This document shows, in pieces, positions 4,621 to 52,962 of a DNA stretch of 64,000 nt. The position numbers were made by a program, and so were the translations under genes. The stretch is from an uncultured Flavobacteriaceae bacterium. GTDB taxonomy: Bacteria > Bacteroidota > Bacteroidia > Flavobacteriales > Flavobacteriaceae. The notes beneath the pieces were generated by a model that ran no database searches, had not been told where the DNA came from, and saw only the letters and a list, made by a program, of their open reading frames with translations. Position 1 is the first letter of the stretch. The number at the start of each line of letters is the position of its first letter. Location of the stretch: positions 10,009 to 74,008 of the forward strand of contig CASIAE010000005.1 of assembly GCA_949372605.1 (NCBI GenBank), given 5' to 3'.

Positions 4621-4725
4621 ATGAATAAGAAAAAAGTTATATTATATGTATCGCTTTGGGCGTTGTTGATTTCTTTAGGTGGACTTGCACAACAATACTC
4701 TGACTTTCACACCACCGTCCCTTGA
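4621..4725 (+). pseudogene. 34-codon ORF that is essentially only a Bacteroidetes-type signal peptide (MNKKKVILYVSLWALLISLGGLAQQ + 9 aa); possible 5' remnant of a truncated secreted-protein gene
   Basis: ATG at 4621, TGA at 4723-4725. It overlaps the 3' end of the convergent arsS by 19 nt. No mature domain follows the signal peptide. Confidence 0.3.
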
Positions 4726-5762
4726 CAGCTACTTCCCGATCCTGCCGTACAACCATAGCAGTGTTGTGATATACAAATTTTCCTTTCTTGCAATAGCCCT
4801 AAATTAAAATTACGCAGATGCGATATTGGACTTGCTACTTTTAAGCCTAACATCTGGTTAAAGTCACAATCATAAAGCAACCCGTCCCAGCTAACGGAAA
4901 GTGTGTTGGTACACATCAGATTGGCAACTGCTTTAGGATTAAATGCTTCAACCAAAGATGACATGTAATCCTCATAGTTTTCTGAGGCAATTAAGTAATC
5001 TAGAAAACGACTGATTGGCAAATTTGTGATTGCAAATAATTGATTAAAGTCAATATTAAAATCAATTTTTAAAGCTTTCTTAAATTCTTTTTCTAAAATC
5101 TTCTCATTTGCTGGTAAAAATGCTCCTGAGGGATTGTAAACCAAATCAAGATGTAAATTACTGTTTGACTTTCCATATCCAACAGAATTTAGAAGTTTTA
5201 AAGCAGTTATAGACTGATTAAAAACTCCATCACCTCTTTGACTATCGGTTTTATTTTTTTTATAAAAAGGTAACGAGGAAATAATATGAACTTTGTTTTG
5301 TTTAAAAAAGTGAGGAAGATTATGATATTTTTTATTGGCCATAATTATTGTCAAATTAGATCGGACAATAATCTCCTCAACATCTGTCAAACGTATCTGA
5401 GTAACAAACCAAAGAAAATCAGGATGCATTTCAGGAGCGCCTCCAGTCAAATCAATAGTTTTAACCTTTGTTTTCTTTAATACATCGAGGCACAGCTCCA
5501 TTGTTTCCCTAGACATCATTTCTTTTCGGTCTGGCCCAGCATCAACGTGACAATGAGCACAAACCTGATTACACATATAGCCAACATTAACTTGAAGAAT
5601 CTCTAGTTTTAAAGGACGAGGTGCATTGAGTTCATACGCAACCAAATTGGAGTCAAACTTTGGGAGACCTCCTTCAGAGAAAATACCATTAGAAAGTATT
5701 TCTAATTGGCGTTTAGTTGAAGACAAAAGGCTATTCCTTGCTTTTAAAGATTTGGAAACCAT
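4707..5762 (-). CDS. arsS: Arsenosugar biosynthesis radical SAM/Cys-rich protein ArsS (Cys form)
   Basis: CNQVCAHC radical-SAM CxxxCxxC triad and a Cys-rich C-terminal tail CYGCTAGSGSSCQGTVV (TGT codon, not TGA). The neighbourhood contains arsM and the associated families. Confidence 0.85.
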   Translation of the reverse strand: MVSKSLKARNSLLSSTKRQLEILSNGIFSEGGLPKFDSNLVAYELNAPRPLKLEILQVNVGYMCNQVCAHCHVDAGPDRKEMMSRETMELCLDVLKKTKVKTIDLTGGAPEMHPDFLWFVTQIRLTDVEEIIVRSNLTIIMANKKYHNLPHFFKQNKVHIISSLPFYKKNKTDSQRGDGVFNQSITALKLLNSVGYGKSNSNLHLDLVYNPSGAFLPANEKILEKEFKKALKIDFNIDFNQLFAITNLPISRFLDYLIASENYEDYMSSLVEAFNPKAVANLMCTNTLSVSWDGLLYDCDFNQMLGLKVASPISHLRNFNLGLLQERKICISQHCYGCTAGSGSSCQGTVV

Positions 5763-5763
5763 A

Positions 5764-6099
5764 TTACATACTCAATTTATCGTACACATTCATCATTTGA
5801 ACGCCATGTACCAAGGAGGCACCACTACGTATGGCTGCCCCAACATGAACCGCTTCCATCATTTCAGATTTTTCAATCCCTTTCTGCAAGCCGTCACGCG
5901 TATAAGCCTCAATACAATAAGGACACTGAACTACATGAGAGACTGCAAGAGCAATCAATGATTTTTCACGGGTACTTAGAGTCCCCTCTTTAAAAACACT
6001 ATTGTAATATTCAAAAAACTTTTCACCTAAATCTGGATTCCAATCTGTGATGTTTTTAAATTTTTTCAAATCATCACTTTTATAATAATTTCTTTTCAT
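5764..6099 (-). CDS. Arsenosugar-biosynthesis-associated peroxidase-like protein (AhpD/carboxymuconolactone decarboxylase family)
   Basis: 111 aa with a VVQCPYCIEAY CxxC motif typical of the AhpD-like fold. Lies 1 nt upstream of arsS on the same strand. Confidence 0.8.
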   Translation of the reverse strand: MKRNYYKSDDLKKFKNITDWNPDLGEKFFEYYNSVFKEGTLSTREKSLIALAVSHVVQCPYCIEAYTRDGLQKGIEKSEMMEAVHVGAAIRSGASLVHGVQMMNVYDKLSM

Positions 6100-6570
6100 G
6101 AGTTTTATTTTTTTGGCAAATAATATTAATAACGCATCTGTTTTATAAAAATAATTAATGTTGAAATCCTTGAAAATAATAACGATTTTAATATTATGAA
6201 GAAGTATTAAATACTAATTTTAAAAAATTTACAATATGACAACTTCAACATCAATTATATACTTTTGGATTATCCTCAATATCTTAAAATTGATTCTATT
6301 TCATTTTTTACTTACTTCATTGTTTTTTTTAACCATTATTTATACACAAATTACTATAAAAAAACATATAAAGTTAAGATTAGTCTCTTAGAATCACAAT
6401 CAACATATCAACAAATGAATCCATATTTAATTTTCAATATTTTAAATCGAATCTCAAGTTTATTTTTATTAGGAAAATACTTTTAATTATGATTTACACC
6501 AATGGAAAAGTGTGTGTACATTGGGGTGTTTTATGCTAAAAAACAAAGTTATTTTAAGTAAATTTATTTC

Positions 6571-7179
6571 GTGAAATCACTAATCATAGTTTTCTGTAAA
6601 AACCCAACATTGGGTGGGGTAAAATCGCGATTAGCGAAAAAGATTGGGAAACATAAAGCTTTAGAAGTCTATAACTATTTATTGGCACACACTTCAGACT
6701 GCGTAAAAGAGTCTGGTTTCTCAGCTGCCGTTTTCTACAGTGAATTCATTCCCGAGGCTGACCTTTGGGATGAAGTTGCACAATATAAAGTGCTACAAGA
6801 AGGTTCTGATTTAGGAGCAAGAATGCAACTTGCTTTTCAATGGGCTTTCAACAAAGGTTTTGAGTTTGTATTAATTATCGGAAGTGATTTATGGAGCTTA
6901 AAATCAAAGGATATTGATTTGTCATTCAAGTTACTGTTAACTCATGATGTGGTCATAGGCCCAGCAAAAGATGGTGGCTATTACTTGTTAGGATTAAAGC
7001 AATTGAGAAAAAATATTTTTAAGAACATACCTTGGAGTACTGACCAAGTTTTCAGTAAAACGTTAAATGCATTAGAAGGAAATGATGTGTTTCTTCTCGA
7101 TGAAAAAAACGATATAGATATTTTAAAAGACCTTGAAGATCATCCTGATTTATTAGAAAAAATTAGACCGCATGAATAG
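6571..7179 (+). CDS. DUF2064 / TIGR04282-type arsenosugar-associated glycosyltransferase-like protein
   Basis: GTG start. The N-terminal IIVFCKNPTLGGVKSRLA motif is typical of DUF2064. First gene of the plus-strand arsenic operon, with an 8-nt overlap onto the next gene. Confidence 0.75.
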   Translation: MKSLIIVFCKNPTLGGVKSRLAKKIGKHKALEVYNYLLAHTSDCVKESGFSAAVFYSEFIPEADLWDEVAQYKVLQEGSDLGARMQLAFQWAFNKGFEFVLIIGSDLWSLKSKDIDLSFKLLLTHDVVIGPAKDGGYYLLGLKQLRKNIFKNIPWSTDQVFSKTLNALEGNDVFLLDEKNDIDILKDLEDHPDLLEKIRPHE

Positions 7180-7990
7180 GATAGAAAAACTAAAAGAATC
7201 AATCAGATTCATTAAAAAACGAGGAATAGAATCAACTGAATTTGGAATTATTCTTGGGACAGGTCTGGGGAGAATAGTAAAAAAAATTAAACACATAATC
7301 GTTCTTGATTATGAGGAAATACCCCATTTTCCGCTAACGACACTTTCCCATGATAAAGGAAAACTGATTTACGGAACATTATTTGGAAAGAAAGTTTTGG
7401 TCTTTGATGTCCGCTTCCATCTTTATGAAGCTTATGATTTTTTTGAAATCACATATTCAGTAAGAATAATGAAACTGTTGGGAGTGAAAAATTTAGTGTT
7501 AAGTAACGCTGCTGGAGCTATCAACCTTGAATTCAAAAAAGGAGAAATTATGCTGATAGAAGATCACATCAATCTTCAAGGAGGTTCACCACTTGCAATG
7601 AAAAATATTGAGGAATTTGGAGAAAGATTTGTTGACATGAGTCAACCTTATAATCAAAAATCAATCGAAATTCTTAAAACAATCGCTAGTGAAAATGAAA
7701 TTATAATGCACCAAGGTGTTTATGTAGCCGTTGTTGGTCCTCAACTAGAAACTCCGGCGGAGTATCGCTACCTTAAAATCATTGGAGCGGATGCTGTAGG
7801 CATGTCAACAGTCCCAGAAGTCATTGTGGCCAATCAATTAAAAATACCTGTAATTGCATTTTCGGTATTGACAGATTCTTGCGACCCTGACAACCTACAA
7901 CCGATTAACATTCCTGAAATAATGGACATGGCCAAGAAAGGTGAAAATACGCTTATCTTGTTGCTAGAAAAATGGATGTCTAGAATTTAA
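7172..7990 (+). CDS. Purine nucleoside phosphorylase family protein (trimeric PNP/MTAP class) with Asp at the base-specificity position
   Basis: Aligns by eye with human PNP/PunA: GTGLG, VRFHLYE, SNAAGAIN, GPQLETPAE, GMSTVPEVIVA. The ITN(K) position reads LTD(S), giving D235 at codon 7874-7876. Confidence 0.85.
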   Translation: MNRIEKLKESIRFIKKRGIESTEFGIILGTGLGRIVKKIKHIIVLDYEEIPHFPLTTLSHDKGKLIYGTLFGKKVLVFDVRFHLYEAYDFFEITYSVRIMKLLGVKNLVLSNAAGAINLEFKKGEIMLIEDHINLQGGSPLAMKNIEEFGERFVDMSQPYNQKSIEILKTIASENEIIMHQGVYVAVVGPQLETPAEYRYLKIIGADAVGMSTVPEVIVANQLKIPVIAFSVLTDSCDPDNLQPINIPEIMDMAKKGENTLILLLEKWMSRI

Positions 7991-8010
7991 TTTATAAATT
8001 AAATGAAAAA

Positions 8011-8979
8011 ATGGAATACTTAAAAACCACACACGATGTTTATAAACAGGCTGCTATAACACCAGATTTAGGGCTCTGTTGTACGACCACTCCCCTTTGG
8101 AAATTGCCAGGTTTAACAATACCAATTCGGATGCAAGAAATGAATTACGGATGCGGAAGCACAGTACACCCAAGGGATTTAAGTGGGAATCCAAAGGTGC
8201 TTTATGTGGGTGTTGGTGGTGGAATGGAATTACTACAGTTTGCTTATTTCTCTCGAGAAAAAGGAAGAGTTGTTGGAGTTGATGTTGTAGATGAAATGTT
8301 GGAAGCTTCAAAGGAAAACTTCAAACTAGCTGAAAATGAAAACGATTGGTTTAAGTCGGATTTTGTTACACTCAAAAAAGGGGACGCTTTAAACCTTCCT
8401 GTTCCAGAGAATAGCATTGATGTAGCAGCCCAAAACTGCCTTTTTAATATTTTTAAAATGACCGAGTTGAAGCAGGCTCTAAAAGAAATGTATCGCGTAC
8501 TAAAAACAAATGGACGACTCGTAATGAGTGATCCAATCTGTGATCAGCCGATGAATGAAACCTTAAGGAATGACAATAGGTTGAGGGCCTTATGTCTATC
8601 GGGTTCCATTCCTTTAAAAGAATACATTAAAATGTTAACTGATGTTGGCTTTGGAACCATTGAAATTCGTGCCAAACGACCTTATCGCATCTTAGATCCG
8701 CTAAACTACGCTACTGAAGAATTAATTTATATTGAGAGTGTAGAAGTTTGTGCTATTAAAGATCCGATGCCAGCAGATGGACCCTGCGTTTTCACTGGAA
8801 AAACAGGAATTTATTTTGGCAGTGAAGATTATTTTGATGATGGCAATGGCCATGTGCTTTTACAAAATCAACCGCTCGCTATTTGTGATAAAACAGCGAA
8901 TTCATTGTTAGAATTAAATCGAAAAGATATTTTTATTTCACATGCAACATTCCATTACGATGGTGGAGGATGTTGCTGA
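8011..8979 (+). CDS. arsM: Arsenite S-adenosylmethionine methyltransferase, arsenosugar-cluster type
   Basis: SAM-binding VLYVGVGGGME motif, an N-terminal LCC cysteine pair, further conserved Cys residues (NYGCGS, PICDQP) and a C-terminal GGGCC. Sits in an operon with arsS-associated genes. Confidence 0.8.
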   Translation: MEYLKTTHDVYKQAAITPDLGLCCTTTPLWKLPGLTIPIRMQEMNYGCGSTVHPRDLSGNPKVLYVGVGGGMELLQFAYFSREKGRVVGVDVVDEMLEASKENFKLAENENDWFKSDFVTLKKGDALNLPVPENSIDVAAQNCLFNIFKMTELKQALKEMYRVLKTNGRLVMSDPICDQPMNETLRNDNRLRALCLSGSIPLKEYIKMLTDVGFGTIEIRAKRPYRILDPLNYATEELIYIESVEVCAIKDPMPADGPCVFTGKTGIYFGSEDYFDDGNGHVLLQNQPLAICDKTANSLLELNRKDIFISHATFHYDGGGCC

Positions 8980-8991
8980 AAATTAATTATT

Positions 8992-9687
8992 ATGCTCAAA
9001 ATCTCATTCTTATTGACCCTGTTTTTAACACTTAACTTTTCTCAAAAAAACATCCATGAAAGATGGGATAAACAGCTAAAAAAATTCGTTTCCGAAACCG
9101 GTAAAGTAAATTACAATAGTTGGAAAAATTCAATTTATGACGTTGAATCCTACCTTGAAGCTTTGAAAGATCATCCGCCACAAGAATTTTGGCCCAAAAA
9201 CGATATAATGGCTTATTGGATAAATGCTTACAATGTATTGACGGTACAATTGATCCTTCAAAACTATCCTTTAAAAAGCATAAAAGATCTTAAAGATCCA
9301 TGGGGTCGAAAGGTTATTGAAATAGAAGGCAAATCTTACAGTTTGGGTGATATAGAACATGAAGTGTTAAGAAAAATGAATGAACCAAGAATTCATTTCG
9401 CTATAAACTGTGCTTCGGTCTCTTGCCCAAAGCTTTTAAACGAGGCTTTTAATAGTTTGAAATTAGAGCAACAACTCAATCGCTTAACCTGTGATTTTTT
9501 ATCTGACAAATCCAAAAACCAACTTAATAGTAAAAAAACAATGCTTTCTAAAATTTTCATGTGGTATGTGAAAGACTTTGGTTCTTTTAATGATCGAGTT
9601 GATTTTTTTAAAAAATATGGAGATGATACTATTAATAAAGAAACAAGCTTTAGGTATTTACCCTATGATTGGAATTTAAATGAGTAA
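8992..9687 (+). CDS. DUF547 domain protein with signal peptide
   Basis: N-terminal MLKISFLLTLFLTLNFSQ signal-like segment and the hallmark HFAINCASVSCPKL motif. 12 nt after arsM, with an 8-nt overlap onto the next GT2. Confidence 0.75.
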   Translation: MLKISFLLTLFLTLNFSQKNIHERWDKQLKKFVSETGKVNYNSWKNSIYDVESYLEALKDHPPQEFWPKNDIMAYWINAYNVLTVQLILQNYPLKSIKDLKDPWGRKVIEIEGKSYSLGDIEHEVLRKMNEPRIHFAINCASVSCPKLLNEAFNSLKLEQQLNRLTCDFLSDKSKNQLNSKKTMLSKIFMWYVKDFGSFNDRVDFFKKYGDDTINKETSFRYLPYDWNLNE

Positions 9688-10363
9688 ACATCTTTCCATT
9701 ATTGTTCCAGTGTATAATGAAAGCAAGTGTATTCTTCCTTTTTTAAAACATATAAAAACCCAAGCCTCAGTAAAACACGAAATAATTGTTGTAGACGGAG
9801 AAAGTATTGACGAGAGTGTTTCTTTAATAAAAAGTCAAAAAAAAATTATCGTAATTCAAGCTAAAAAAGGACGTGCAATACAACTAAATGAGGGTGCTAA
9901 TTGTGCAAAAAATGAATGGCTTTTCTTTGTTCATGCTGACACAATACTACCGTATCATTTTGATCGATTATTGCTTGAAAACTTGAAAAACAAAAAAACA
10001 GCAAGGTGTTTTTCATTAACCTTTGATCTTGATCACTTTTTGTTAAAAATTGCAGCACTCGGAAGCCGTCTAAATATTGCTTGGTGTCGAGGAGGTGACC
10101 AGACGCTGATGGTTCACAAAGATTTATTCAGTGATCTAGGGGGATTTGATGAACATTATAACATCGCTGAAGATTTACTTTTATGCAGAAAGATTTATCG
10201 CCATGGTAACTTTGAAATTTTACCGAAATCTGTAATTACCTCTGGAAGAAAATTTTTAAAAAATGGAGTTTTCAAAACTCAACTAAGACATATAATTGTA
10301 AGAATAATGATTTTTTCAGGATTTAATTCAAATGTGGTAAATTCATGTTTTAAAAAATGGTAG
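9680..10363 (+). CDS. Family 2 glycosyltransferase, TIGR04283-type (arsenosugar-associated)
   Basis: SIIVPVYNE and IIVVDGESIDES GT-A motifs, plus FVHADT. Last gene of the tightly coupled operon. Confidence 0.75.
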   Translation: MSKHLSIIVPVYNESKCILPFLKHIKTQASVKHEIIVVDGESIDESVSLIKSQKKIIVIQAKKGRAIQLNEGANCAKNEWLFFVHADTILPYHFDRLLLENLKNKKTARCFSLTFDLDHFLLKIAALGSRLNIAWCRGGDQTLMVHKDLFSDLGGFDEHYNIAEDLLLCRKIYRHGNFEILPKSVITSGRKFLKNGVFKTQLRHIIVRIMIFSGFNSNVVNSCFKKW

Positions 10364-10494: not shown

Positions 10495-10899
10495 ATGATA
10501 AAAGATATCTTAAGATATAGTTTTATATCATCTCTTACAGCGCTATTCTGCTGTGTAGCCCCCTCTATTCTTTTTCTTCTAGGATTAGGTTCTGCAAGCT
10601 TTGCTTTTAGCTTCGCAGATGCGTTTTATAACATCGACGAAGATGGTGCTCCAAATATTTATTCTTGGTTTATTCGTGTGATTGGGATATTAATTATTCT
10701 TTTTGGAATTAAACAGTATAATAAAAAAGAATCTTGTAGTCTTAACTCACCTAGACAAAAGAAAATAAATAAGTTCATTTTCGGGTTAATATTAATCCTT
10801 TTTACATCATTACTATATTACGCTTGGCATTTTGGAAGCTCTTGGTTATTTGAGAATTATATTGACCCAGCTAGACAAAAAGAATATCTTGTTAAATAA
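10495..10899 (+). CDS. Small 3-TM membrane protein with a MerF/MerT-like di-cysteine in TM1
   Basis: LTALFCCVAPSILFLLGLG resembles the MerF TM1 sequence LVALCCFTPVLVILLG. TM2 is followed by a basic stretch and a Cys (KQYNKKESCS). 18 nt upstream of the next GT2. Confidence 0.6.
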   Translation: MIKDILRYSFISSLTALFCCVAPSILFLLGLGSASFAFSFADAFYNIDEDGAPNIYSWFIRVIGILIILFGIKQYNKKESCSLNSPRQKKINKFIFGLILILFTSLLYYAWHFGSSWLFENYIDPARQKEYLVK

Positions 10900-10917
10900 C
10901 AAGTCTAATCTAATAAT

Positions 10918-11616
10918 ATGCAGAAAATAGGAGTTATTATTCCGGCTTATAACGAGGCACTATCAATTAAAAAAGTAATAAACAAAATTCCTTCATTAGC
11001 TGACGAAATACTAGTAATTAATAATGGATCCACCGATGAAACTCAAATCAAAGCAATTTCTGCTGGGGCAACCGTGTTGAATGAACCTAGAAAGGGATAT
11101 GGTCACGCCTGTCTTTGCGGAATTAATTACTTCAACAACTTAACAAAACCTCCAGAAATTATCGTTTTTTTAGATGGTGACTATTCTGACTACCCTGAAG
11201 ATTTAAATGAAATAATAAAACCTATTTTAGAAGATCAGATAGATTTTGTAGTAGGTTCTCGTGTGAAAAGCAAAAGAGAAAGAGGATCAATGACACCTCA
11301 GCAAATTTTCGGAAATGAACTCGCAAGTGTATTGATAAGAATACTCTATGGTGGAAAATTTAGTGATTTAGGGCCTTTTCGCGCAATCAAACTAGAGGTA
11401 CTAAATAAGCTAGAAATGCAGGACAAAACTTATGGTTGGACGGTAGAAATGCAGCTAAAAATATTGGGGAATAAGTTTTCTTATTGTGAAGTCCCTGTTC
11501 GCTATAAAAAAAGAATCGGAAAATCAAAAGTCTCTGGAACTCTTGTAGGAACGGTCATGGCTTCTATTAAGATATTAGGATGGATTTTTAAATACTACTT
11601 TAAAAATGGAAAATAA
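10918..11616 (+). CDS. Family 2 glycosyltransferase (DPM1/GtrB-like polyprenyl-phosphate glycosyltransferase candidate)
   Basis: GVIIPAYNE and FLDGDYSD (DxD) motifs. Soluble GT-A domain of about 230 aa. Confidence 0.8.
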   Translation: MQKIGVIIPAYNEALSIKKVINKIPSLADEILVINNGSTDETQIKAISAGATVLNEPRKGYGHACLCGINYFNNLTKPPEIIVFLDGDYSDYPEDLNEIIKPILEDQIDFVVGSRVKSKRERGSMTPQQIFGNELASVLIRILYGGKFSDLGPFRAIKLEVLNKLEMQDKTYGWTVEMQLKILGNKFSYCEVPVRYKKRIGKSKVSGTLVGTVMASIKILGWIFKYYFKNGK

Positions 11617-13120
11617 TATCGAACAGTTCTCTTATTTACTTGCGATTGTTTTAATTATTATTTACAGCTTTTCGTTGTTTTTTATATTCCTTTACAGCCT
11701 ATCCCAATTGTATCTACTTAGAAACTATCTCAATTTTCAAAAGATAAAAAAAGAACTAGATCCTCCAAAAAAAATCCCTTGGGAACAACTTCCTAAGGTT
11801 ACTATTCAGCTCCCTGTTTTCAACGAAGTCTATGTGATGGAGCAGCTTTTAACAAACATTAGCGAACTTAATTACCCTAAAGAAAGATTAGAAATTCAGG
11901 TATTAGATGATTCTGATGATGAATCTGTTCCGTTAACAGATGCATTAATCTCAAAAATAAAAGAAAAGGGAATTGACATCATTCATTTAAGGCGAAAAAT
12001 CAGAACTGGTTTTAAAGCGGGTGCTTTAAAAGAAGGGCTAAAAAGTGCAAAAGGCACATTTATTGCAATTTTTGATGCTGACTTTCTACCCGAAAAAGAT
12101 TGGTTGTTGAATACAACACCTCATTTTCAAGATGAAAAAATTGGGGTAGTCCAAACTCGCTGGGGCCATCAAAATAGAAATTATTCAATATTGACTAGTG
12201 TTCAAGCCTTTGCACTAGACGCCCATTTTACTTTGGAACAAATTGGCCGTAACAGTCAGAATCATTTTATAAACTTTAATGGTACTGCTGGTATTTTGAG
12301 GAAAGAATGTATCATCGATTCCGGTAATTGGCAGGCGGATACACTAACTGAAGATCTAGACTTGAGTTACCGAGCACAGCTTCGTGGATGGAAATTTAAA
12401 TACTTAGAGGACATCATCACCCCTGCTGAACTGCCAGTTCTAATTAGTGCTGCTCGTTCACAACAATATCGATGGAACAAAGGAGGTGCCGAAACTTTTC
12501 AGAAAATGATTAAAAAAGTTTTACATTCTAAAAAAACTCCGCTTAAAACAAAACTTTATGCTTTAATGCATCTTTTAAACAGCACCATGTTTTTAAATGT
12601 TTTTATCCTAGCCATCCTAAGCATACCAATGCTTTACATAAAATACAGGTGGAGTGATTTAGGCTTGTATTTTAATCTCTTTTCAATGTTTGTTATAAGC
12701 ACATTAATTTTCTTTGTGTGTTACTGGCAAATACACAAACGGATTTACAGTAGTGGTTTTTTAAGTTTCATAAAATACATTCAAAGTTTCGTTGTTTTCT
12801 TAACACTCGCTTTGGGTTTTTCATTTCACAATTCGATTGCAGTACTTCAAGGTCATTTAGGTAAAAAAACCCCCTTTGTTAGAACTCCAAAATTCAATAA
12901 AAAATCTTTTAAAGAAACCTTACTAAAAAATAAATATAATAATCGTAAAATCTCAAAAAACACCTTAGTGGAAGGCCTTTTAGTGATTTATTTTTTATTT
13001 GGAATGTACAGTGCTTTCACCGTGGGTAAAGAAGGAGATTTTGGGTTATTCCCATTCCACCTGATGTTGTTTTGTGGCTTTGGCTATGTGTCATTACGAT
13101 CACTTATTGAAGGAAAATGA
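11606..13120 (+). CDS. Membrane-embedded processive-type family 2 glycosyltransferase (cellulose synthase/CslA/glucosyl-DAG synthase-like)
   Basis: D,D,D,QxxRW signature: VLDDSDD, FDADF, LTEDLDLS, QQYRWNKG. An N-terminal TM helix and several C-terminal TM helices. Confidence 0.8.
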   Translation: MENNIEQFSYLLAIVLIIIYSFSLFFIFLYSLSQLYLLRNYLNFQKIKKELDPPKKIPWEQLPKVTIQLPVFNEVYVMEQLLTNISELNYPKERLEIQVLDDSDDESVPLTDALISKIKEKGIDIIHLRRKIRTGFKAGALKEGLKSAKGTFIAIFDADFLPEKDWLLNTTPHFQDEKIGVVQTRWGHQNRNYSILTSVQAFALDAHFTLEQIGRNSQNHFINFNGTAGILRKECIIDSGNWQADTLTEDLDLSYRAQLRGWKFKYLEDIITPAELPVLISAARSQQYRWNKGGAETFQKMIKKVLHSKKTPLKTKLYALMHLLNSTMFLNVFILAILSIPMLYIKYRWSDLGLYFNLFSMFVISTLIFFVCYWQIHKRIYSSGFLSFIKYIQSFVVFLTLALGFSFHNSIAVLQGHLGKKTPFVRTPKFNKKSFKETLLKNKYNNRKISKNTLVEGLLVIYFLFGMYSAFTVGKEGDFGLFPFHLMLFCGFGYVSLRSLIEGK

Positions 13121-13494
13121 GCCGTAATAAATTAACATCTTATGGCTGCATAATCATCGGATTAATCTGTTATGCATACCAAGGGTATTTCATCGAAAGG
13201 TCCTCTCATCTAGAGTTGATCTCCTCTTTCGTCCTAATGTTCCTGTCCTATTTGTGGCTCCAAAAAACAAAAGAAATTAGATGGAAGGAGATTTTATGGA
13301 TCGGGATTGGTTTTCGCCTAATCTTACTTTTTTCTACCCCTTGGCTTTCTCAAGATTTTTGTAGATTTTTTTGGGATGGTGAAATTCAGCTCTTAGGTTT
13401 TAATCCCTATGAGTTTTCGCCTAATGAACTACTCTCTTCTGATCAAAAGTCTTTATTTTCAAAAACACTGTATGATGAGAATGGGAGAACTTGA
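13117..13494 (+). CDS. N-terminal fragment of a polytopic membrane protein (GT-C/DUF2029-like mannosyltransferase candidate)
   Basis: TM helices plus WLSQDFCRFFWDGEIQLLGFNPY. ATGA-coupled to the upstream GT2. Ends at TGA 13492-13494, only 4 nt into the next ORF. Confidence 0.55.
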   Translation: MSRNKLTSYGCIIIGLICYAYQGYFIERSSHLELISSFVLMFLSYLWLQKTKEIRWKEILWIGIGFRLILLFSTPWLSQDFCRFFWDGEIQLLGFNPYEFSPNELLSSDQKSLFSKTLYDENGRT

Positions 13495-14450
13495 GTCAAT
13501 CTAATTACTCCAATTATCCCCCAGTGAGTCAATGGCTTTTTACTGTTTTGGCATTTGTAAGTAATGGGAAGTTATTTCCCATGATTATAGGACTCCGGCT
13601 CGTTCATATTGTTGCCGATGTTGGATTGTTTTTTATTGGAACAAAACTGTTAAAAAAATTAAAACTTCCTAAGAAAAACATCGGATGGTATTTCTTAAAT
13701 CCATTGGTCATCGTTGAGCTGATCGGTAATTTACATGGTGAAGGTCTGATGTTGCTTTTTCTTCTTTTTGCGGTGTTTATGCTAACTGAGAATCGGCTGC
13801 TCATTGCTGGTATTTTCATGGCGATGGGTGTCGGTGCAAAATTAATTCCACTTTTCTTTTTATTGATTTTAATCTACCCTCAGAAATGGAAAGATCGTTT
13901 TTGTTTTCTTGGAAGTGTTGGCTTCTCCTCTCTGGTGATTTGGGGGCCCTATTTGTCGGTTTTAATGGGAGGGAATTACTGGGTAACCATAAGGCTTTGG
14001 TTTGATACTTTTGAATTTAACGGCAGTATTTACAACTTAATCCGATCCGTGGGCTATCAAATCAGAGGTTATAATGTCATTAAAATAATTGGAAAGTTTA
14101 CGCCTTTCGTTGTAATGGGAATGGTGTTTGTTTTTTCTGTTGTAAAGAAAAACGACACCCTGTCAAGACGTTTTAAAAGCATGTTGTTTCTCATCACCGC
14201 CTATCTGTTTATAAGCACAACCGTCCACCCATGGTATGTGATCACTCCTTTACTATTTGGTGTTTTCACAAACTATCGATTTGCATTGTTATGGACGGCA
14301 ACAGTCACCTTAAGCTATACCAGCTACGGAATACATGAGGTTTATACGAGTCCACTAATCTTATTTCTAGAATACTTACCCGTTTATCTGCTCTTAATTT
14401 TAGAGGTAAGTGGAAAAGACAATCGCATCAAAGCATTTGTAAGAAGTTAA
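13491..14450 (+). CDS. C-terminal part of the same polytopic membrane protein (apparent frameshift split)
   Basis: Begins at TTG 13491 with no ATG for 30 codons. SNYPPVSQW is followed by at least 8 hydrophobic helices. This frame opens only at 13479. Confidence 0.55.
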   Translation: MSQSNYSNYPPVSQWLFTVLAFVSNGKLFPMIIGLRLVHIVADVGLFFIGTKLLKKLKLPKKNIGWYFLNPLVIVELIGNLHGEGLMLLFLLFAVFMLTENRLLIAGIFMAMGVGAKLIPLFFLLILIYPQKWKDRFCFLGSVGFSSLVIWGPYLSVLMGGNYWVTIRLWFDTFEFNGSIYNLIRSVGYQIRGYNVIKIIGKFTPFVVMGMVFVFSVVKKNDTLSRRFKSMLFLITAYLFISTTVHPWYVITPLLFGVFTNYRFALLWTATVTLSYTSYGIHEVYTSPLILFLEYLPVYLLLILEVSGKDNRIKAFVRS

Positions 14451-52874: not shown

Positions 52875-52962
52875 CAGAGAGGAAGGGATTCGAACCCTCG
52901 ATACGCTTTTGGCGTATACACGCTTTCCAAGCGTGCGCCTTCGACCACTCGGCCACCTCTCT
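52875..52962 (-). tRNA. tRNA-Ser (anticodon GGA), class II with a long variable arm; CCA not encoded
   Basis: Reverse complement: AGAGAGG-TG-GCCGAGTGGTCGAAGGC-GCACGC-TTGGAAA-GCGTG-(variable arm TATACGCCAAAAGCGTATC)-GAGGGTTCGAATCCCTT-CCTCTCT-G. The acceptor stem AGAGAGG/CCTCTCT pairs perfectly, and the anticodon loop TTGGAAA gives GGA. Confidence 0.9.

Follow-up and report, generated by a model that had tools for sequence, protein, structure and literature searches.

A purine nucleoside phosphorylase with a predicted adenine-type base pocket is a conserved member of the arsenosugar gene module of Bacteroidota

Introduction

A 64,000-nucleotide stretch of contig CASIAE010000005.1 from an uncultured marine Flavobacteriaceae bacterium, hereafter called the window, carries a complete arsenosugar gene set at positions 4707–10363, with a trp operon upstream. 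Within this set lies a gene for a purine nucleoside phosphorylase (PNP) of the trimeric type, which is the subject of this study. We describe its predicted active site, its conserved linkage to the radical S-adenosylmethionine (SAM) enzyme ArsS, and the part that it may play in arsenosugar biosynthesis.

In marine algae and seafood, arsenosugars make up the main organoarsenicals, and to our knowledge only the first two enzymes of their biosynthesis, ArsM and ArsS, are known. The pathway proposal of Edmonds and Francesconi reportedly includes both adenine removal and glycosidation. ArsS makes DDMAA (5'-deoxy-5'-dimethylarsinoyl-adenosine) in vitro (PMC13598754). For the removal of adenine, one review invokes a hypothetical 'adenosyl nucleosidase', and a preprint of May 2026 goes no further than stating that adenine 'can then be removed'. 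No paper in the literature that we searched names an enzyme for this step, in line with the view taken in a first-pass annotation of the window, and none couples arsenosugars with PNP, MTAP or glycosyltransferase genes.

Results

Gene content of the arsenosugar locus

Five family models, those for ArsS, arsenosugar-type ArsM, TIGR04169, TIGR04282 and TIGR04283, all score above their curated cutoffs within positions 4707–10363 (Table 1), which bears out the arsenic context assigned to the locus by the first-pass annotation. The layout that it described around the PNP gene is also found. The PNP start codon (ATG, 7172–7174) precedes the DUF2064 stop codon (7177–7179), so that the two genes overlap by 8 nucleotides (ATGAATAG), and 20 nucleotides separate the PNP stop codon (7988–7990) from the arsM ATG at 8011. 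The closest ArsS locus in our scan belongs to a Candidatus Arcticimaribacter metagenome-assembled genome (70% amino-acid identity), and the exact PNP protein of the window occurs on at least 22 metagenome contigs.

Table 1 Features of the arsenosugar locus and codons of interest in the PNP gene (window coordinates).
Feature	Position	Strand	Evidence or remark
ArsS	4707–5762	−	TIGR04167, 430.8 bits (cutoff 300); DUF3641
AhpD/CMD-like protein, arsenosugar-biosynthesis associated	5764–6099	−	TIGR04169, 190.4 bits (cutoff 120)
Intergenic region separating the divergent ArsS/CMD and DUF2064-PNP-ArsM-DUF547-GT2 units	6100–6570	none	AT-rich
DUF2064/TIGR04282 protein, CofC/MobA-like nucleotidyltransferase-type fold	6571–7179	+	TIGR04282, 189 bits (cutoff 134); CofC, E = 1e-8
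PNP, trimeric type, Leu200/Asp243 clade	7172–7990	+	Family model scores, AlphaFold2 model, residue mapping
Asp61 codon	7352–7354	+	Human His64 (phosphate-loop) position
Codons of PNP residues 61, 80, 87 and 96	7352–7354, 7409–7411, 7430–7432, 7457–7459	+	
Leu192 codon	7745–7747	+	Human Phe200 (purine-stacking) position
Asp235 codon (GAT)	7874–7876	+	Human Asn243 and MTAP Asp220 position
Ile247–Ile250 codons (I-P-E-I)	7910–7921	+	Ile247 at human His257 (5'-OH ligand); Ile250 at human Val260
ArsM, arsenosugar-type arsenite methyltransferase	8011–8979	+	NF038099, 556.5 bits (cutoff 400)
DUF547 protein, conserved module member	8992–9687	+	PF04784
GT2 glycosyltransferase, TIGR04283 family	9680–10363	+	TIGR04283, 216.9 bits (cutoff 182)

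Fold and active site of the PNP

The PNP comprises 272 residues. It exceeds the cutoffs of NF006054 (purine-nucleoside phosphorylase; 312.6 bits, cutoff 218) and TIGR01697 (273.3 bits, cutoff 197.1), matches PF01048 with E = 4e-42, and stays under the cutoff of TIGR01700, the inosine/guanosine-specific equivalog (275.0 vs 293.35 bits). An AlphaFold2 model (predicted local distance difference test score (pLDDT) 88.6; predicted template modeling score (pTM) 0.89) was superposed on solved structures with Foldseek and gave template modeling (TM) scores of 0.92–0.94, as a monomer fold, to 4lna, 4m1e, 8swt, 8swu and human PNP.

The sequence motifs GTGLG, VRFHLYE, SNAAGAIN, GMSTVPEV, GPQLETPAE, TTLSHDKG and SVLTDSC, all reported in the first-pass annotation, are present in the protein. 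Residue equivalences were assigned by MAFFT alignment with human MTAP and with a human PNP reference that is 100% identical over 289 residues to PDB 1pf7/1ula. Asn243 of human PNP corresponds to Asp235 and Phe200 to Leu192, the placements given in that annotation; Glu201 corresponds to Glu193, His64 to Asp61, His257 to Ile247 and Val260 to Ile250. The replacement of His257 by an aliphatic residue is a feature beyond those listed there. On the MTAP side, Asp220 aligns with Asp235, Val233 with Ile247 and Val236 with Ile250, and we take the two valines to line the methylthio pocket of MTAP.

The phosphate- and ribose-binding set (Ser33, His64, Arg84, His86, Tyr88, Asn115, Ala116, Phe159, Met219 and Ser220 in human numbering, used hereafter for aligned positions) is kept in the window PNP but for two members: Ser33 is Thr throughout the clade, and His64 is Asp61 in this lineage only. 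Of the residues typical of inosine/guanosine-specific PNPs (Glu201 and Asn243 for 6-oxopurine recognition, His257 for the 5'-OH), Glu201 is kept (Glu193) and Asn243 and His257 are not (Asp235, Ile247). All 54 PNPs linked to arsenosugar clusters have Asp at position 243 and Leu at position 200; position 257 is Ile in 51, Val in two and Leu in one; and R84, H86, Y88, N115, A116, F159, E201, M219, S220 and T242 are kept.

In human PNP, Phe200 stacks on the purine and His257 forms a hydrogen bond with the 5'-OH (PMC4308819). The N256D mutant of Kluyveromyces lactis PNP prefers adenosine to inosine (PMC5074518), and a 5000-fold gain is cited there for human PNP N243D, in agreement with the earlier statement that a change of this type confers adenosine activity. 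By these residue identities, the base pocket of the window PNP is predicted to be of the adenine type, with Asp for Asn243 and Leu for Phe200, and its 5' pocket to be hydrophobic and MTAP-like, with Ile in place of the 5'-OH ligand His257.

Linkage of the PNP to ArsS

A scan for ArsS over one genome per species gave 80 loci in Bacteroidota, each with at most 10 kb of flanking sequence per side. These loci are phylogenetically related and their counts are therefore not independent events, though the gene arrangements differ widely; with that qualification, 53 of the 80 have a PNP homolog no more than 10 kb from ArsS, as do 36 of the 52 whose flanks are complete. CMD (TIGR04169) homologs adjoin ArsS in 78 of the loci, DUF2064 homologs are found in 65, ArsM in 41, DUF547 in 36 and TIGR04283 in 27. 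The genes that flank the set in the window served as controls and recur in two (trp genes) or one (the RluB-like and UbiA-like genes). Several genes that NCBI names for arsenosugar synthesis are therefore tied to ArsS less often than PNP is, and the co-occurrence with arsS elsewhere that the first-pass annotation had raised is borne out.

The arrangement is conserved as well. DUF2064 stands directly upstream of PNP in 50 of 56 cases, and seven of seven flavobacterial contexts viewed from the PNP side read DUF2064-PNP-(ArsM)-DUF547-GT2, even with no ArsS nearby. In a second phylum and in another gene order, Gimesia aquarii (Planctomycetota) has GT2 and DUF2064 divergent from ArsM-ArsS-(123-residue protein)-PNP, and on a Gimesia-like metagenome contig (L106) PNP also follows ArsS. 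The PNP is thus a conserved, non-accidental member of a Bacteroidota module, DUF2064 (TIGR04282)-PNP-(ArsM)-DUF547-GT2 (TIGR04283), that accompanies ArsS. Because a PNP with a putative adenine-type site is a conserved member of the arsenosugar cluster, it is the best candidate, as judged from sequence, for removing adenine from the arsenic-bearing adenosine intermediate. Our best reading, for and against which we see about equal chances, is that it would act as a dedicated DDMAA phosphorylase whose sugar-1-phosphate product is passed to the DUF2064 and GT2 proteins.

The complete genome of Nonlabens marinus, in which the system is split, bears on this reading. CMD-ArsS-ArsM-DUF2064' lies at 0.42 Mb and DUF2064-PNP-DUF547-GT2 at 1.32 Mb; the PNP therefore belongs with the downstream, glycosyl-handling half. 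Such splits also bear on the idea that the PNP clears by-products, removing the 5'-deoxyadenosine left by ArsS after abortive SAM cleavage, or other adenosyl inhibitors of radical SAM enzymes or methyltransferases, as MTAP or MtnN do elsewhere, with the sugar phosphate left unused for arsenosugar. A protector of ArsS would be expected beside ArsS, whereas in the split systems of N. marinus, Flagellimonas and Maribacter the PNP stays with DUF2064, DUF547 and GT2. This weakens the idea, although an adenine-type pocket with a hydrophobic 5' residue would suit 5'-deoxyadenosine or methylthioadenosine as well as DDMAA, and the Bacteroidota loci examined hold no MtnN or MTAP homolog. We consider clearance of this kind quite improbable.

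Distribution of the active-site signature

The combination of Leu200, Asp243 and a hydrophobic residue at position 257 extends well beyond arsenosugar clusters. The nearest solved relatives of the window PNP, 4lna from Spirosoma linguale and 4m1e from Planctopirus limnophila (46% and 43% identity in the Foldseek alignment; TM 0.93–0.94), are structural-genomics entries titled 'purine nucleoside phosphorylase I' whose titles state no function, and both carry Leu200, Asp243 and Leu257. In a neighbor-joining tree, built without bootstrap, all Leu/Asp PNPs fall into one clade, apart from the human, Bacteroides fragilis, Clostridium perfringens and Streptococcus mutans enzymes. On two contigs, L160 (231–2893) and L162, deoC is followed by tandem PNP paralogs, one with Leu200 and Asp243 and the other with Tyr or Phe at position 200 and Asn243. 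Leu200 and Asp243 thus co-vary as a base-specificity pair, which suggests that the Asp and Asn types are functionally distinct. As a separate observation, the tandem genes look like a natural pair within one nucleoside-catabolism operon, an adenine-type and a 6-oxopurine-type trimeric PNP.

The following observations weigh against a PNP dedicated to DDMAA. A metagenome scan with the 4m1e sequence as query yielded 80 loci with Planctomycete-like PNPs, 79 of which bear the Leu200/Asp243/hydrophobic-257 signature. ArsS accompanies only one of the 80 (the contig L106), DUF2064, ArsM, DUF547 and GT2 lie beside none, and clustering of the neighbors returned only ileS, TPR proteins and similar housekeeping genes. 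The Asn-type paralogs of the two tandem pairs (L160_2 and L162_2) also lack His257; the loss of this residue is therefore a clade trait and no proof of a 5'-substituted substrate. The PNP of B. fragilis (8swt), which combines Asp with Phe200 and His257, was crystallized with Immucillin-H, so Asp alone does not exclude 6-oxopurines. At 27 of the 80 Bacteroidota ArsS loci no PNP is in reach, and two of three Planctomycete ArsS loci (Thalassoroseus and another) have none nearby. NCBIfam names DUF2064 a glycosyltransferase, not a nucleotidyltransferase. The window PNP itself carries H61D, G80V, G87A and P96S, at positions, clustered near the phosphate-binding motif, where at least 33 of 34 homologs share the same residue. 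Finally, it may be the cell's sole adenosine/inosine PNP.

Two earlier ideas are affected by these data. The first-pass annotation had presented the Asn-to-Asp switch as one made inside the arsenic operon. This does not hold, and we rejected Asp as an adaptation special to the operon: it is a trait of a wide bacterial clade that includes 4lna, 4m1e and the 79 signature-bearing Planctomycete-like PNPs, among whose loci ArsS appears once. Likewise, the Asn-type paralogs of the same clade weaken the case that a missing His257 proves a 5'-substituted substrate; the loss remains compatible with 5'-substituted adenosines as substrate.

The same distribution speaks for a rival reading, that of a housekeeping enzyme, an ordinary broad-specificity adenosine/inosine phosphorylase tied only loosely to the operon, for example through recycling of adenine or ribose-1-phosphate. 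Stand-alone PNPs with this signature lie beside housekeeping genes in Planctomycete-like contigs and beside deoC in L160, the NCBIfam label reads simply purine-nucleoside phosphorylase, and no other PNP-superfamily gene was found in the window. Such a role would leave unexplained why the gene is kept at 53 of 80 ArsS loci against a background synteny of one to two in 80, and why, across numerous rearrangements and two phyla, it keeps its place mid-module with translational coupling to DUF2064. The clade is also phylogenetically apart from the B. fragilis, Clostridium and human PNPs. We therefore regard salvage as unlikely.

Other phosphorylases and nucleosidases were sought in the same material. 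No second PNP, MTAP, DeoD or MtnN was found in the 64-kb window, and tblastn with provisional query sequences for E. coli DeoD and MtnN gave no match better than E = 0.3 in the window and none in the Bacteroidota loci. Non-orthologous displacement of the PNP by MtnN, DeoD or MTAP was considered and rejected, as none of them is present in the ArsS loci that lack a PNP.

Lineage-specific changes near the phosphate site

The four substitutions near the phosphate-binding motif are confined to the lineage of the window. A 90%-identical homolog, P0001, has the consensus residue at all four positions (61, 80, 87 and 96). The allele of the window is abundant and intact and is therefore no sequencing error. 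The altered STVPGHAG loop pointed out in the first-pass annotation is indeed present, as TTLSHDKG, and is peculiar to the population of the window: His stands at the His64 position in 53 of 54 cluster-linked homologs and also in P0001, so the loop is a lineage quirk and not a family feature. Its phosphate-site substitutions make the window PNP the most atypical one of its family.

A phosphate site of this kind invites a further explanation, in which the PNP would carry out arsenolysis of nucleosides and the labile ribose-1-arsenate would be reduced by thiols to arsenite, feeding As(III) to ArsM. In vitro, mammalian PNP can reduce arsenate when dithiols are supplied (Gregus and Nemeti 2002; Radabaugh 2002, both cited in PMC12608789), and the window PNP carries unusual substitutions around its phosphate site. 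The same review considers the in vivo relevance doubtful (PMC12608789), none of the other 53 cluster PNPs has the substitutions, and arsenate activation leaves both the invariant Asp/Leu base pocket and the coupling to DUF2064 and GT2 unexplained. We hold it to be highly improbable.

Other features of the locus

Many Bacteroidota genomes have two DUF2064 paralogs (L013, L038, L061, L062, L064, L080, L172, which is N. marinus, and others). The paralog beside ArsS or ArsM is 27–38% identical to the window protein, and the one directly upstream of PNP is 40–50% identical; of the two, only the PNP-linked type is within reach in the window.

DUF547 comes after PNP or ArsM in L001–L003, L170 and L171, and a search by sequence returned no solved relative for it. 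The motif HFAINCASVSCPKL of the window protein has two cysteines spaced four residues apart, which makes a thiol or redox role, such as the handling of As(V)/As(III), conceivable. Recurring just 3' of the module in several flavobacterial genomes (L001, L002, L171) are a GH113-family gene, another DUF547 paralog and a pair of Pyr_redox_2 and ferredoxin-domain genes; none of them is in the window.

The promoters of the two divergent units presumably lie within the intergenic region between them. Promoter-like consensus matches in that region are no more frequent than in shuffled sequence. No Rfam match to a riboswitch or other RNA element was found 5' of the operon, the sole Rfam match in the window being a tRNA at 52875–52962. 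At the intergenic position equivalent to 6236–6391 (+), a 51-residue open reading frame (ORF) was called in near-identical contigs (L004–L006); its product looks hydrophobic and has no family match, and it may not be a gene.

Directly 3' of the arsenosugar genes, positions 10495–13120 encode a 134-residue membrane protein, a 232-residue GT2 of the Dpm1/AglJ-like polyprenyl-phosphate type and a 504-residue membrane GT2. These genes are probably non-core, because they lie beside ArsS in only 2–11 of the 80 loci, though the parts list recalls lipid-linked sugar pathways. They are followed by a GT-C-like gene (MptA/GT87-type in relatives) at 13117–14450 (+), which is split into ORFs at 13117–13494 and 13491–14450 by two 1-nucleotide insertions 13 nucleotides apart, relative to L004, where the gene is intact (443 residues). 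Identity to L004 is 94.4% in this stretch and 98.8% over the surrounding 16 kb. A pseudogene, a strain variant and an assembly error are all possible explanations of the split.

Discussion

The observation on which the first-pass annotation was built, a PNP with Asp at the base-specificity position in an arsenosugar cluster, is confirmed, and its interpretation is partly supported. Based on the conserved gene order and the residue identities, we propose a plausible sequence of reactions. ArsM and ArsS would together produce DDMAA. The PNP would then use phosphate to release adenine and yield 5-deoxy-5-dimethylarsinoyl-alpha-D-ribose-1-phosphate, DUF2064 would convert this sugar-1-phosphate to a nucleoside diphosphate (NDP)-sugar, and an inverting GT2 would transfer the sugar to an acceptor, giving a beta-riboside. 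DUF2064 is kin to the guanylyltransferase CofC, and its best solved relative is 3cgx, a structural-genomics entry titled 'putative nucleotide-diphospho-sugar transferase'; it could therefore nucleotidylate a sugar-1-phosphate.

PNPs yield alpha-ribose-1-phosphate, GT2 enzymes invert, and natural arsenosugars are beta-ribosides. An alpha-ribose-1-phosphate handed on to an inverting GT2 would thus lead to a beta-riboside product, as in natural arsenosugars. As a tentative extension, DUF2064-PNP-DUF547-GT2 may constitute a complete and previously undescribed sugar-activation route, with DUF2064 as a sugar-1-phosphate nucleotidylyltransferase making NDP-arsenoribose and the TIGR04283 GT2 forming the beta-arsenoriboside. 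We consider this extension possible but rather doubtful.

In its proposed chemistry the window enzyme recalls MTAP/MtnP of the NP-I superfamily, which phosphorolyses a 5'-substituted adenosine to adenine and a 5-substituted ribose-1-phosphate; the window PNP would do likewise. The two share an Asp in the base-specificity position and an aliphatic lining of the 5' pocket, a likeness of mechanism and not of membership. The window PNP scores 80.5 bits with TIGR01694 (cutoff 274.85) and 40–70 bits with other MTAP and MTIP models (cutoffs 223–453), is about 24% identical to human MTAP, and keeps the PNP-type Glu201, Tyr88 and Phe159 where MTAP has Ser178, Ile67 and His137. It is a member of the trimeric-PNP clade and probably works like MTAP on an arsenic-bearing adenosine.

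The classical trimeric PNPs (human PNP and PunA; C. perfringens 8swu; S. mutans 3la8) share its fold and its phosphate and ribose catalytic residues. They differ from it in having Phe200 and His257 instead of Leu and Ile, in the TIGR01700 score and in falling outside its neighbor-joining clade. The adenosine activity that was engineered into the human and K. lactis enzymes by N243D and N256D depends on an Asp that the window PNP has naturally. The window PNP shares its signature with the two nearest solved relatives, and the relatives of 4m1e are mostly not beside arsenic genes. The trimeric PNP of Thermus thermophilus (6tk9) is a structural match, with a TM score of 0.94. This enzyme is said to have been described by Tomoike et al. 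in 2013 as adenosine-preferring. We take it to have Asp at the Asn243 position and Ala in place of Glu201, whereas the window PNP keeps Glu, and to have no known arsenic context. The trimeric PNP of A. migulanus was tried as a further comparator and proved uninformative, its adenosine activity being only ~3% of its inosine activity.

An analogous logic is seen in methylthioxylose (MTX) capping in Mycobacterium tuberculosis, where a small GT2 transfers a 5-substituted pentose that stems from an adenosyl compound. Rv0535, an MTAP-family gene, presumably lies in the same MTX cluster. The pathway differs in its methylthio rather than dimethylarsinoyl group, in the sugar epimer and in its polyprenyl phosphate donor, and no DUF2064 is known there. 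The small GT2, Rv0539/MtxS, makes the MTX lipid donor (PMC12088412).

Taken over the family, the sequences define a large Leu200/Asp243 clade of trimeric PNPs without the 5'-OH ligand, whose predicted base preference would be at odds with the textbook rule that trimeric PNPs are 6-oxopurine-specific. Within the arsenosugar system, PNP is commoner than ArsM beside ArsS and sits between two glycosyltransferases that NCBI labels as arsenosugar proteins, and the next steps of the pathway become testable with four proteins. The linkage points to release of the ribose from the intermediate in activated form, as a 1-phosphate rather than a free sugar. If the proposed sugar-activation route is true, it would supply enzymes for both adenine removal and glycosidation and would give DUF2064 a function.

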